Positions 56,785-59,724 of a stretch of 64,000 nt of DNA are shown piece by piece. Position 1 is the first letter of the stretch, and every line of letters begins with the position of its first letter. The notes beneath the pieces were generated by a model. The model did not search any database. It was not told the DNA's origin and saw nothing but the letters and a program-made list of their open reading frames with translations. The translations under genes and the position numbers were made by a program. Source of the stretch: Shigella phage ESh26; sequence record ON528736; one strand, given 5' to 3'.

Positions 56785-57348
56785 TTATTTATCTAGTTTA
56801 GTTATTATAGCTTCTGCAGCAGCTTTTAGCTTAGATGCGGTGTTAATACGATTTTTAATTTCAGTATACGCATCGCCAAGAACATCAAGGCTATCAGAAT
56901 AAACACTTACACTATTGCGTTCGCTATTTGAAATAGAACCTTTAGTTTTGCGGTCAAAATCGGTGTACACGTCTTGAAGATCGCGGGCTGCCTTCTTTGC
57001 ATCATCCAATGCATCAAGAGCTTTATTCAAAGCATTAACGTATTTTTTAGTGTCGAACATATTCTTAGAAATTTTAACAGGTGCGCGTTCAGGAGTAGCT
57101 AACACAGATTTAGGAACCTGAGCGCCAGATGCCAATTTCTTAGAAATTTTGAAAAATGCTTTATTGAATTTATTTTCTTGACTCATTGTAAAAGAACTAT
57201 TATCGATGTTGTACATTTCAATAGCTTTAGCTTTCCACTTAAGAAAATCGCCGCGGTCTTTTGGGTCCAATTGGAAGAATACTTTAGTAAGATCTGCTTC
57301 AGATGGTAATTTTGCTGCTTCGGTTAAAAATTCGGCATAGGTTTTCAT
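56785..57348 (-). CDS. internal head protein (IPIII-like)
   Basis: 187 aa; N-terminal MKTYAEFLTEA capsid-targeting-sequence-like; terminator downstream. Confidence 0.65.
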   Translation of the reverse strand: MKTYAEFLTEAAKLPSEADLTKVFFQLDPKDRGDFLKWKAKAIEMYNIDNSSFTMSQENKFNKAFFKISKKLASGAQVPKSVLATPERAPVKISKNMFDTKKYVNALNKALDALDDAKKAARDLQDVYTDFDRKTKGSISNSERNSVSVYSDSLDVLGDAYTEIKNRINTASKLKAAAEAIITKLDK

Positions 57349-57473: not shown

Positions 57474-57947
57474 TTATTTGATTTGTTTAGCAGACCAAAT
57501 GCGGTCTTTAATAATTTTTTGGATGTCTTCAACATACTCAAGAGAGTGAACATGCGGATTATCTTTGAAACTATAAGCACGGGCTAACTTTTGGCCTTCG
57601 GTTTTGATTACTAAAAGCTCTTTAAGGATAGCTTCATATTTAGCGATAATTCCTTTAACGATATTTTTTTCTTGTGCAGCTTTAGGATCTGCTTTAGGAG
57701 CAGGTTTACCCGAAGCCTTTGCAAAAGCAGCGCCAGTAGCAACTAAACTTTTCCAGGCCATACTAACTGCATTTCCCGTAAATCCTTCTGCTTTCATGTC
57801 GCGAGCAAATTGGAATCGTGATTCGTCAGAAGCATCTTTATAGGAATATTTACCCGCTGCAATGGCTGCTTTTGCGACAGCTTGAATTTCGGTGCTAGAT
57901 GCTTCATTTAACACCGCTTCATTTAAAAATTGAGCATATGATTTCAT
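57474..57947 (-). CDS. internal head protein (IPII-like)
   Basis: 157 aa; MKSYAQFLNEA; late promoter TATAAATA at 57988-57995. Confidence 0.65.
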   Translation of the reverse strand: MKSYAQFLNEAVLNEASSTEIQAVAKAAIAAGKYSYKDASDESRFQFARDMKAEGFTGNAVSMAWKSLVATGAAFAKASGKPAPKADPKAAQEKNIVKGIIAKYEAILKELLVIKTEGQKLARAYSFKDNPHVHSLEYVEDIQKIIKDRIWSAKQIK

Positions 57948-57987: not shown

Positions 57988-57995
57988 TATTTATA
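57988..57995 (-). promoter_or_regulatory. late promoter TATAAATA for IPII-like gene
   Basis: Plus-strand tatttata 41 nt upstream of start 57947. Confidence 0.6.
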
Positions 57996-57996
57996 C

Positions 57997-58025
57997 TAAA
58001 AAGCCCCAACCTTTCGGTCGGGGCT
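57997..58025 (-). terminator. intrinsic terminator ending the tRNA-operon transcript
   Basis: aaaaa then agccccaacc-tttc-ggtcggggct. Confidence 0.6.
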
Positions 58026-58336
58026 AAGCCTTGCGGCAACCTTGTCGGGGTTCCACCTGCTAAGGCAAGTGTTTGTACGAAACGCCGGGATTCGAACCCG
58101 GTTATTAAGCAGTTGACGCTACTCAATATTTTTAAAAGGCCATATCTCGACCATATCCGAACGTTCCGTCAAAAACGCTACTCGGCTTACGGCAAAGATA
58201 TTTCCTCGAATCGATAATTCTGTGCGCCGTTTCTGCTGTGATGTAAGGGGACATTAACAGATCGTAAAGATTTGTTAATGCCAGTCCTTACCCAGGGAAC
58301 ATCAGTCCGACGACTTACCGGTAGCGACCCGGTTTC
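58026..58336 (-). ncRNA. structured GC-rich untranslated region after the tRNA operon; possible stable small RNA(s)
   Basis: No ORF; composite hairpin 58243-58291; tRNA T-arm-like CCGGG-TTCGAAT-CCCGG (minus strand) near 58086-58102; ends at terminator 57997-58025. Confidence 0.35.
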
Positions 58337-58687
58337 TTAATATTCTTTTAAAGCATCAATCTGTTCACGGCGTTTACGCCATAAATCAATTGCTTCATAC
58401 GCAGATTCAGCATTTCGAATTAGTCGGCATTTGTGTAAAGACTTGTGATTTTGATATTGCGTAGATAACGAAATTTTATCTAAAAGGTCTTTACGTTCAA
58501 AGTATTCGTAACCATCTAAGCCAAATGAACGATTTTTGAGAAATTGCCAATGACCATATTCGTTTTCGACATAAACATAATCCGCATGTTGATAAAGCAA
58601 ATTAATTACACGTTCAGAAATAACAGTGTCATTGTGATTAAAATAAAATGTTAAATCATGAACTACTAAATAAACATTACCTTTCAT
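58337..58687 (-). CDS. hypothetical protein
   Basis: 116-aa ORF immediately downstream of tRNA-Arg; GAGG RBS. Confidence 0.45.
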   Translation of the reverse strand: MKGNVYLVVHDLTFYFNHNDTVISERVINLLYQHADYVYVENEYGHWQFLKNRSFGLDGYEYFERKDLLDKISLSTQYQNHKSLHKCRLIRNAESAYEAIDLWRKRREQIDALKEY

Positions 58688-58703: not shown

Positions 58704-58779
58704 TGGTCGAGGCAGTAGGGATCGAACCTACGACCTAGGACTTAGAAGGTCCTTGCTCTTCCTTCTGAGCTATGCCCCG
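58704..58779 (-). tRNA. tRNA-Arg (anticodon TCT)
   Basis: Manual cloverleaf: acceptor CGGGGCA/TGCCTCG, loop CTTCTAA, T-loop TTCGATC, encoded CCA. Confidence 0.85.
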
Positions 58780-58783
58780 TAAT

Positions 58784-58859
58784 TGGGGTGACCGATGGGG
58801 GTCGAACCCATGACTACGAGAATCACAATCTCGAGTTCTACCAACTGAACTACGGCCAC
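58784..58859 (-). tRNA. tRNA-His (anticodon GTG)
   Basis: Manual cloverleaf: acceptor GTGGCCG/CGGTCAC, loop TTGTGAT, discriminator C, encoded CCA; no G at -1. Confidence 0.75.
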
Positions 58860-58972
58860 ATTAATACCTACTCCAACAATCAAGATGTCTTCACACGAAA
58901 TTAAGAGAAGAGTGATCAGTTCAACCCTATAATCGCGTCAAGTAGATATTAATGTGACAGTTGTCACAAATT

Positions 58973-59047
58973 TGGCGGACGTGATAGGATTCGAACCTAT
59001 AACCAATCGCTTAACAGGCGATCGCTCTGCCATTGAGCTACACATCC
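58973..59047 (-). tRNA. tRNA-Asn (anticodon GTT)
   Basis: Manual cloverleaf: acceptor GGATGTG/CACGTCC, loop CTGTTAA, T-loop TTCGAAT, encoded CCA. Confidence 0.8.
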
Positions 59048-59051
59048 AAAT

Positions 59052-59138
59052 TGGTGGGGAGTGATGGAGTCGAACCACCCGAGTCGCAATGACAATGGAT
59101 TTACAGTCCACACCGCTACCTCTACGGGATAACTCCCC
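59052..59138 (-). tRNA. tRNA-Tyr (anticodon GTA), long variable arm
   Basis: 87 nt; acceptor GGGGAGT/ACTCCCC, loop CTGTAAA, T-loop TTCGACT, encoded CCA. Confidence 0.75.
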
Positions 59139-59151
59139 TTAATTCTTAATT

Positions 59152-59226
59152 TGGTGGCCCTGGGTGGAATTGAACCACCATCTGGCGATTATGAGTCGCT
59201 TGCTTGAACCTTCCAGCTACAGGGCC
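59152..59226 (-). tRNA. tRNA with anticodon CAT (Ile-lysidine type as in T4, or Met)
   Basis: Acceptor GGCCCTG/CAGGGCC, loop CTCATAA, T-loop TTCAATT, encoded CCA; position after tRNA-Thr. Confidence 0.75.
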
Positions 59227-59227
59227 T

Positions 59228-59303
59228 TGGTGCTGATTGACGGAATCGAACCGCCGACCTTCTCATTACAAGTGAGTTGCTCTACCTACTGAGCTAAATC
59301 AGC
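59228..59303 (-). tRNA. tRNA-Thr (anticodon TGT)
   Basis: GCTGATTTAGCTCAGTAGGTAGAGC...CTTGTAA...GGTTCGATTCC...CAATCAGCACCA. Confidence 0.9.
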
Positions 59304-59308
59304 AAAAC

Positions 59309-59398
59309 TGGCGGAGGCGATAGGATTTGAACCTATGAGTCGCCGGAGCGACTGCCGGTTTTCAAGACCGGTGCATTAAACCACTCTGCCACGCCTCC
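59309..59398 (-). tRNA. tRNA-Ser (anticodon TGA), long variable arm
   Basis: 90 nt; GGAGGCGTGGCAGAGTGG...CTTGAAA...GGTTCAAATCC...CGCCTCCGCCA. Confidence 0.9.
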
Positions 59399-59400
59399 AG

Positions 59401-59474
59401 TCTCCATACAAGGATTTGAACCTTGGACCTCCTGATCCCAAATCAGGCGCTCTACCAAACTGAGCTACACGGAG
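59401..59474 (-). tRNA. tRNA-Pro (anticodon TGG), CCA not encoded
   Basis: CTCCGTGTAGCTCAGTTTGGTAGAGC...TTTGGGA...GGTTCAAATCC; 2 nt from tRNA-Ser (dimeric precursor as in T4). Confidence 0.88.
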
Positions 59475-59484
59475 TAAATTAAAT

Positions 59485-59558
<74 letters not shown>

Positions 59559-59563
59559 AAATT

Positions 59564-59650
59564 TGGTGCGAGAAGTGGGACTCGAACCCACAAGGAAATC
59601 ATTCCGCAGCATTTTAAGTGCTGTGCCTTTACCAATTTGGCCATTCTCGC
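59564..59650 (-). tRNA. tRNA-Leu (anticodon TAA), long variable arm
   Basis: 87 nt; GCGAGAATGGCCAAATTGGTAAAGGC...CTTAAAA...GGGTTCGAGTCCC...CGCACCA. Confidence 0.9.
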
Positions 59651-59651
59651 G

Positions 59652-59724
59652 CTGGGAATAAAGGACTCGAACCTTTGCATCCTGGAATCAAAATCCAGTG
59701 CCTTACCAACTTGGCTAATTCCCA
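59652..59724 (-). tRNA. tRNA-Gln (anticodon TTG), CCA not fully encoded
   Basis: TGGGAATTAGCCAAGTTGG...TTTTGAT...GGTTCGAGTCC...ATTCCCAG; abuts tRNA-Leu. Confidence 0.88.

Follow-up and report, generated by a model that had tools for sequence, protein, structure and literature searches.

The rnaD-rnaC pair of T-even phages is not a new element; these are already known, textbook genes, and their production from the terminal part of the T4 tRNA operon is long established. In the T4 reference genome (NC_000866), the order is tRNA-Arg, rnaD, a 6-nt gap, and rnaC, with rnaD at 71053 to 71171 (119 nt; T4s002, "small, stable RNA; species 2 RNA") and rnaC at 70908 to 71046 (139 nt; T4s001, "species 1 RNA"). 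A dual-omics study places the species 1 and 2 RNAs among the late RNAs "of yet unknown functions," and its northern validation with an RNAC probe shows T4 rnaC to be a discrete stable RNA of about 140 nt in infected cells (PMC9697503). In three T4-like phage lines adapting to Escherichia coli ECOR34, the only mutation common to all was a SNP in rnaD, at 164264 in a reverse-strand region spanning 164080 to 164336 (PMC12685909). From these coordinates, we infer that the substitution lies in the apical hairpin, some 73 nt into rnaD as counted from the 5' end.

We analyzed the corresponding locus in a 64,000-nt stretch of Shigella phage ESh26 (ON528736; hereafter, the window), where positions 58026 to 58336 had previously been flagged as a structured, GC-rich untranslated region at the end of a tRNA operon. 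That label is acceptable as a description, but the region would consist of genes for discrete RNAs and not of a UTR: we read it, with a probability of about 0.9 based on alignment and predicted structure, as two minus-strand RNA genes orthologous to T4 rnaD and rnaC, followed by a conserved trailer and the operon terminator. To the known pair, the analysis adds exact coordinates, folds supported by covariation, and a distribution among phages, a comparative picture that makes the long-standing question of function experimentally approachable.

Composition of the region and colinearity with T4

The GC content of 58026 to 58336 is 0.479, compared with 0.347 for the whole window and 0.308 for the upstream 116-aa ORF; that of the tRNA block is 0.477. 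On the minus strand, these 311 nt fold with an MFE of -110.3 kcal/mol (z score of -4.44; 0/100 shuffles as good), the plus strand folds more weakly (z score of -2.06), and separate z scores are -4.55 for rnaC, -3.68 for rnaD, and -4.17 for the trailer. The original prediction is upheld in its description of the locus: GC content is above that of the surroundings, the fold surpasses that of shuffled sequences, no conserved ORF is present (the only overlaps are mechanical ORFs of 34 to 50 aa), and the region lies between the last gene after tRNA-Arg (the 116-aa ORF) and a minus-strand terminator made up of a stem (58025 to 58002) and a subsequent U tract. The structural elements it named are also present, and each finds a place in one of the two RNAs: the two-part hairpin at 58243 to 58291 is the apical hairpin of rnaD, the ccgg-tagcgac-ccgg hairpin at 58318 to 58332 is helix P1 of rnaD, and the T-arm-like CCGGG-TTCGAAT-CCCGG (58101 to 58085, minus strand) belongs to rnaC. 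Given the GC contrast, the fold beyond that of shuffles, and the presence of the hairpins, the feature is therefore real and more than chance.

A BLAST search of 50,697 phage records with a 356-nt query (58345 to 57990) matched 805 records, nearly all of T-even type, and 679 of them cover at least 80% of the query. The best matches, at 100% identity (e.g., IME339), are Tequatrovirus, and T4 itself is 94.5% identical over the query. The window is colinear with T4 through rnaD, the linker, rnaC, the 3' trailer, and the terminator (alignment A1; Table 1), which makes the putative stable RNAs orthologues of the very T4 RNAs to which the prediction had compared them as analogues. Within the tRNA operon, rnaC occupies the 3' end, preceded by rnaD and succeeded by the conserved trailer and terminator. 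Over 139 nt it departs from its T4 counterpart by two substitutions only (98.6% identity), with the same length, order, and fold and no difference of substance. It is 100% identical to the annotated rnaC of Kha5h, a phage that is 97.5% identical across the region and in which both rnaC and the terminator are annotated at the matching place.

Table 1. Features of the stable-RNA locus, listed in the order of the minus strand
Feature	Position	Strand	Basis or remarks
tRNA cluster, 11 genes (Gln ... Arg), upstream of the stable RNAs	58704..59724	-	tRNA gene calls
Putative rnaD orthologue (T4 species 2 RNA), ~120 nt	58221..58340	-	Ends by homology to T4 annotation
rnaD helix P1, ACCGG-GUCGCUA-CCGGU, 5 bp, 7-nt loop	58317..58333	-	Consensus fold
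rnaD helix P2, 5' strand GUCGUCG	58308..58314	-	Pairs with 58222-58229; RNAalifold and MFE agree
rnaD conserved core GUUCCCUG, CCC bulge between short helices	58293..58300	-	Alignments A5 and A6
rnaD apical hairpin P4	58243..58291	-	Predicted fold, alignments
rnaD helix P2, 3' strand CGGCG(C)AC	58222..58229	-	Homology-placed mature 3' end 1 nt beyond
Linker between rnaD and rnaC, AU-rich GAAUUA	58215..58220	-	Matches the 6-nt gap in T4 annotation
Putative rnaC orthologue (T4 species 1 RNA), 139 nt, expanded cloverleaf	58076..58214	-	Homology, covariance model, MFE
rnaC acceptor-like stem, 5' strand CGAUUCG	58207..58213	-	7 bp with CGUUUCG 58078-58084; two internal U.U mismatches
rnaC long arm, 70 nt, D-arm position	58137..58206	-	Base AGG/CCU, apical loop UUUGACGG
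rnaC 10-bp arm, anticodon-arm position	58103..58128	-	Conserved loop CGUCAA
rnaC T arm CCGGG-UUCGAAU-CCCGG	58085..58101	-	One nt beyond the 10-bp arm
rnaC acceptor 3' strand CGUUUCG plus 2-nt overhang UA	58076..58084	-	T4 annotation, alignment
Conserved 3' trailer	58026..58075	-	Alignment with T4, MFE
Trailer hairpin CACUUGC-CUUA-GCAGGUG	58071-58054	-	Predicted fold
Intrinsic terminator of the tRNA/stable-RNA operon	57996..58025	-	10-bp stem (7 G-C), stem 58025-58002, then T run

The match to T4 is looser for rnaD (88% identity over 117 nt). The core motifs and closing helix are as in T4, rnaD directly precedes rnaC in both phages, and the two apical hairpins are several compensated substitutions apart. 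The upstream side differs: T4 rnaD starts 2 nt after the CCA of tRNA-Arg, whereas in the window, as in RB69, an ORF (here, of 116 aa) separates tRNA-Arg from rnaD, and the first homology-placed nucleotides of rnaD overlap the stop codon of that ORF. In other relatives rnaD follows other tRNAs, and a start immediately 3' of tRNA-Arg is a trait of T4's arrangement, not of the RNA. Because an ORF and not tRNA-Arg lies upstream here, the rnaD 5' end must, to judge from the gene order, be formed by a route different from that in T4, and its coordinate in Table 1 is only a guess from homology.

Among the matches listed, only T4, Kha5h, RB3, and RB10 annotate rnaC or rnaD; most have "hypothetical protein" coding sequences (CDSs) or nothing across the two RNA genes. 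The coordinates and covariance-supported folds given here could be used to correct records that have spurious CDSs or that lack annotation.

Conserved folds of rnaC and rnaD

The two RNAs fold into distinct structures that recur among their relatives, as follows.

(i) rnaC was compared with homologues from Mosigvirus, Karamvirus, Moonvirus, Gelderlandvirus, Kanagawavirus, Mosugukvirus, and Klebsiella phages. RNAalifold applied to 12 rnaC sequences yields a four-way junction, the same fold as the single-sequence MFE structure. The earlier statement that the T arm "does not complete a cloverleaf" is thus wrong, since a cloverleaf-like junction is returned by both methods. The consensus contains 43 pairs, with 96.3% of cells paired and compensatory changes in 24 of the 43; 0/500 shuffles are as good, and slid controls reach only 41 to 50% paired.

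Each helix of rnaC contributes to this pattern. In the acceptor-like stem, six relatives have G-C in place of A-U; the stem of Pectobacterium phage PM2 begins with an A-U pair and has U-A where the others have U.U mismatches. Compensatory changes affect 15 of 23 pairs in the long arm (helices 2 to 5) and 6 of 10 in the 10-bp arm, the two being separated by single-stranded AAAAAU; the middle pair of the T arm is G-C in six sequences, U-A in five, and U-G in one. Kanagawavirus-type phages (L026, L034, and L038) have the T loop changed from UUCGAAU to UGCAUGC while retaining its stem and the rest of the fold, and the identity of the T loop is therefore dispensable in that lineage. The 3' end following the acceptor strand varies, reading UACA in the window and in T4-type phages and UCCA in the Klebsiella-phage group and PM2 (the U-CCA homologues being L024 and L031 to L033, of Klebsiella type, and L025 and L035, from PM2). 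In PM2, the acceptor stem is fully paired and includes G3.U70, the alanine identity pair.

(ii) rnaD was analyzed in two alignments, A5, consisting of 22 distinct sequences, and A6, a model-based alignment that adds far more divergent copies but, being fitted to the model, somewhat favors the structure. The fold comprises a single-stranded 5' tail, the P1 hairpin, and a bulged rod closed by the long-range helix P2, and it is reproduced by the single-sequence MFE. There are 23 pairs, 96.5 to 97% paired (slid controls, 31 to 50%), with compensatory pairs numbering 10 in A5 and 14 in A6. In P1, such changes occur in three of five pairs in A5 and in all five in A6, and for the P2 pair closest to the core, 14 sequences have G-C and 4 have C-G (A6).

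Between P2 and the apical hairpin, rnaD has an internal loop, the short helix 3, the CCC bulge, and a UG/CA helix. Three of the four helix 3 pairs show compensatory changes (one is U-A in 11 sequences, A-U in 3, and G-C in 3 in A6), and the UCCCUG of the core (58298 to 58293) is almost invariant across genera. The apical hairpin is the variable part: unrelated hairpins of other lengths replace P4 in different phages.

Two other structures were considered for rnaD and rejected. A hand-drawn model with an AGUC-GUCG-GACU hairpin and a UGAUGU/ACAUCA helix keeps its variable pair in 15 of 22 sequences versus 20 of 22 for the RNAalifold structure, and the compensatory changes in A6 favor the long-range helix and helix 3 instead. 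The hammerhead-like motif CUGAUG ... GAAAC fails on several counts: the core varies (CUGAUGU, CUGAAGU, CUGAGAU) and is lost in Moon-type copies, helix I is missing, the would-be N7 is base-paired and covarying, and there is no Rfam match to a hammerhead ribozyme.

Relationship of rnaC to tRNAs and other RNA classes

The resemblance of rnaC to a canonical tRNA includes a 7-bp acceptor-like stem stacked on a 5-bp T stem, a 7-nt T loop, a four-way junction, a site among tRNA genes, and, in some relatives, a U-CCA tail. Unlike a canonical tRNA, it has a 70-nt arm in place of the D arm and a 10-bp stem with a 6-nt loop at the anticodon position, has no variable loop, and falls below the threshold of every tRNA model. 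Nor does it have an N-CCA 3' end, the genome reading U-ACA and the T4 annotation ending at UA. We conclude that rnaC is tRNA-shaped and probably tRNA-derived, yet not a tRNA proper.

Standard searches agree with this placement. ARAGORN called no tRNA or tmRNA in the region, neither RNA has a model in Rfam, and Rfam searches of 58026 to 58340 at gathering thresholds and at E values up to 10 returned chance-level matches only (isrK and adapt33_2, both on the plus strand, and tRNA-Sec, whose 16.6 bits fall short of its gathering score, 47), with no match to RF00005 in the region even at E values up to 10. The region has neither the tag frame nor the RF00023 match of a tmRNA, the only RF00023 match falling on tRNA-Asn, outside the region. 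tRNA finders miss rnaC because its four-way junction is too expanded. The covariance-model check that had been proposed in the original prediction therefore divides: tRNA and tmRNA models stay below threshold, but models built from relatives recognize rnaC at 169 bits and rnaD (22 relatives) at 150 bits, each as the sole match in the window, with no extra copy of either RNA detected there by either model. After its true homologues, the next-best matches of the rnaC model, at other loci, are real tRNAs aligned weakly, from end to end (E values of 0.03 to 0.6).

Other noncoding RNAs, namely, the tRNA-like modules of YrlA, a bacterial Y RNA, and the tRNA-like domain of tmRNA, borrow the acceptor/T-arm stack and are handled by tRNA enzymes. 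Unlike these, rnaC has no Ro-binding stem, mRNA-like part, or pseudoknots, and the likeness is one of resemblance only and not of membership.

Distribution among phages

In other phage genera, rnaD and rnaC occur independently of one another and nearly always adjoin tRNA genes; they are separate modules, independently mobile and tRNA associated. The interval that separates tRNA-Trp from tRNA-Gly in Karamvirus ZX13 is taken up exactly by rnaC. Divergent rnaD copies, recognized by the rnaD model, are present at other sites within the tRNA clusters of Moon, PM2, and Kanagawavirus-type phages. Searches for host or plasmid homologues recovered none from 5,426 E. coli genomes or 72,556 plasmids.

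Two further arrangements were encountered. In Dhakavirus dhabil (L006, approximately 1196 to 1400) and JS98 (L028, approximately 596 to 800), rnaD is fused to the conserved trailer and terminator, and what is missing is precisely the rnaC module, including its AAUUA leader and CAAA tail. A5-4, an Escherichia phage of the Vequintavirinae (L007), contains two rnaD-like copies (305 to 413 and 1199 to 1326), each beginning right after a tRNA (Met and Tyr, respectively); the longer is nearest to Dhakavirus rnaD (86% identity to JS98), which suggests horizontal transfer together with tRNA cassettes.

The rnaD core (AAGTCGTCGGACTGATTTTCCCTG) had one match only in 185,579 bacterial and archaeal genomes, on a Coriobacteriales MAG contig (JAUMWN010000008.1; L039, 7035 to 7058, minus strand), where the calculated chance expectation is ~0.07. 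The surrounding sequence is a nested inverted repeat of low GC content, with an outer 15-bp helix that closes at the would-be P2 site; it matches no Rfam family and lies downstream of a 74-aa ORF that we take to resemble a Nif11-type leader peptide.

Proposed processing from the tRNA transcript

The best reading of the locus is that rnaD and rnaC are stable, structured RNAs that would be excised from the tRNA transcript by host RNases. Both would form the last part of the operon transcript, being presumably cotranscribed with the 11-gene cluster, and would be freed from it by the host nucleases that process tRNAs. The linker between them is AAAUUA in T4 and GAAUUA here, and AAUUA also precedes rnaC in several phages that have an upstream tRNA; we infer that GAAUUA serves as an endonucleolytic processing site, with the cut made either by an RNase E-like enzyme or by RNase P at the acceptor-like stem of rnaC.

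The linker has the look of an RNase E-type site, and RNase E is presumably the enzyme that would cut it; in T4, RNase E classically cleaves the "p2Sp1" precursor, and the trailer is cut by RNase III. The acceptor/T-arm stack is the minimal shape recognized by RNase P, and the annotated 5' end of rnaC is within 1 nt of the expected RNase P cut. Following endonucleolytic cleavage, 3' exonucleases would trim each RNA to 1 to 2 nt past its closing helix, which is where the annotated 3' ends of rnaD and rnaC fall; overhangs of 1 to 2 nt are what is expected of a 3' exonuclease stopped by a stable helix, and such a stop would explain the persistence of the RNAs. These putative enzyme assignments combine the anatomy of the locus with work on T4 from the 1980s.

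The MFE structure of the full 311 nt also pairs GAAACG, from the 3' end of rnaD, with CGUUUC, from the 3' end of rnaC, in a precursor helix. We rejected this helix as a conserved feature because each RNA keeps its sequence in phages that lack the other.

Function and alternative readings

For the activity of the two RNAs, we tentatively advance the possibility that rnaC mimics a tRNA toward a tRNA-binding host or phage factor and that the conserved, unpaired core of rnaD acts on a host-specific partner. This proposal is made because the tRNA shape is kept, unpaired motifs are conserved, the modules move independently, and an adaptive SNP has arisen in rnaD. Against mimicry, rnaC has no CCA end in T4-like phages, and its CGUCAA loop is unlike known nuclease targets. 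T4 remains viable on laboratory hosts when its tRNA region is deleted.

A more specific version, which we regard as doubtful, is that rnaC is no relic but a functioning tRNA mimic whose ancestor could be aminoacylated and that rnaC, rnaD, or both may serve as decoys or modulators of a tRNA-directed host enzyme or antiphage system. Such an ancestor is suggested because the relatives in Klebsiella phages and PM2 still encode U-CCA, and that in PM2 has G3.U70 as well. If true, the decoy function would answer the roughly 50-year-old question of the purpose of the T4 species 1 and 2 RNAs and would explain the repeated gain in growth from a single rnaD SNP on one E. coli strain (PMC12685909).

The main alternative, in our view unlikely, would have the RNAs be stable by-products with only a cis role, i.e., structured spacers that guide or punctuate processing or that shield the tRNAs from 3' exonucleases. 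The nearly constant embedding of both RNAs in, or attachment to, tRNA clusters fits such a role, as do the simple absence of rnaC from Dhakavirus and the fact that a function goes unreported in two studies (PMC3014915, PMC9697503). A spacer, however, has no need of the unpaired motifs that are kept across genera (UCCCUG and AAGUCGUC in rnaD; CGUCAA and AAAAAU in rnaC), and by-products sit poorly both with modules that move independently, one of which has reached the unrelated subfamily Vequintavirinae, and with the convergent adaptive SNP in rnaD (PMC12685909).

The original prediction also entertained a decayed tRNA. One or more former tRNA genes, now drifting without function, might account for a canonical T arm (58101 to 58085) beside an acceptor-like stem with mismatches, for the lack of any call by ARAGORN or the Rfam tRNA model, and for UACA here where some relatives have CCA, but the comparative evidence contradicts this reading. 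Compensatory changes maintain 24 of 43 rnaC pairs in eight or more genera (96% of cells paired), and helices preserved in this manner are the opposite of decay; moreover, rnaC is 98.6% identical to T4 compared with 88% for the adjacent rnaD, and in T4 the RNA builds up as a discrete species (PMC9697503). The rnaC fold is, by these alignments, under selection and not decaying, and a drifting pseudogene is highly improbable. That the region instead encodes small proteins, as the "hypothetical protein" CDSs placed there in most of the GenBank matches listed would have it, deserves almost no credence: the minus-strand ORFs of 40 and 50 aa that overlap the region are mechanical, the 40-aa ORF is 35 aa in T4 and absent from RB69 and from L011, L012, and L018, substitutions compensate RNA helices and follow no codon pattern, and the T4 reference has RNAs at this site, not CDSs.

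Neighboring features

The genes around the two RNAs differ from those of T4 in several respects. The cluster of 11 tRNAs (58704 to 59724; Gln, Leu, Gly, Pro, Ser, Thr, Met[CAU], Tyr, Asn, His, and Arg) compares with 8 tRNAs in T4, whose segB homing endonuclease gene is absent here. The 116-aa ORF between tRNA-Arg and rnaD (58337 to 58687, minus strand) belongs to phrog_3355 and has no Pfam match; T4 has nothing at this site, and the RB69 equivalent is ORF150c. Searches of the neighboring ORFs against Pfam and PHROGs returned only families of unknown function.

Within the cluster, a 113-nt gap between tRNA-His and tRNA-Asn (58860 to 58972, minus strand) contains the perfect palindrome GTGACAACTGTCAC and has an MFE z score of -2.95; a processing spacer, an internal promoter region, and another small RNA are candidate identities for this gap. 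Downstream of the locus are two paralogous minus-strand ORFs of 157 aa (57474 to 57947) and 187 aa (56785 to 57348), both assigned to phrog_2280. The hairpin that follows the 157-aa ORF (57464 to 57445) nearly duplicates the operon terminator (58025 to 58002), which explains the BLAST matches in two pieces some 900 bp apart. Directly after the operon terminator and before the 157-aa ORF, the minus strand has a box resembling a T4 late promoter (TATAAATA, 57988 to 57995).
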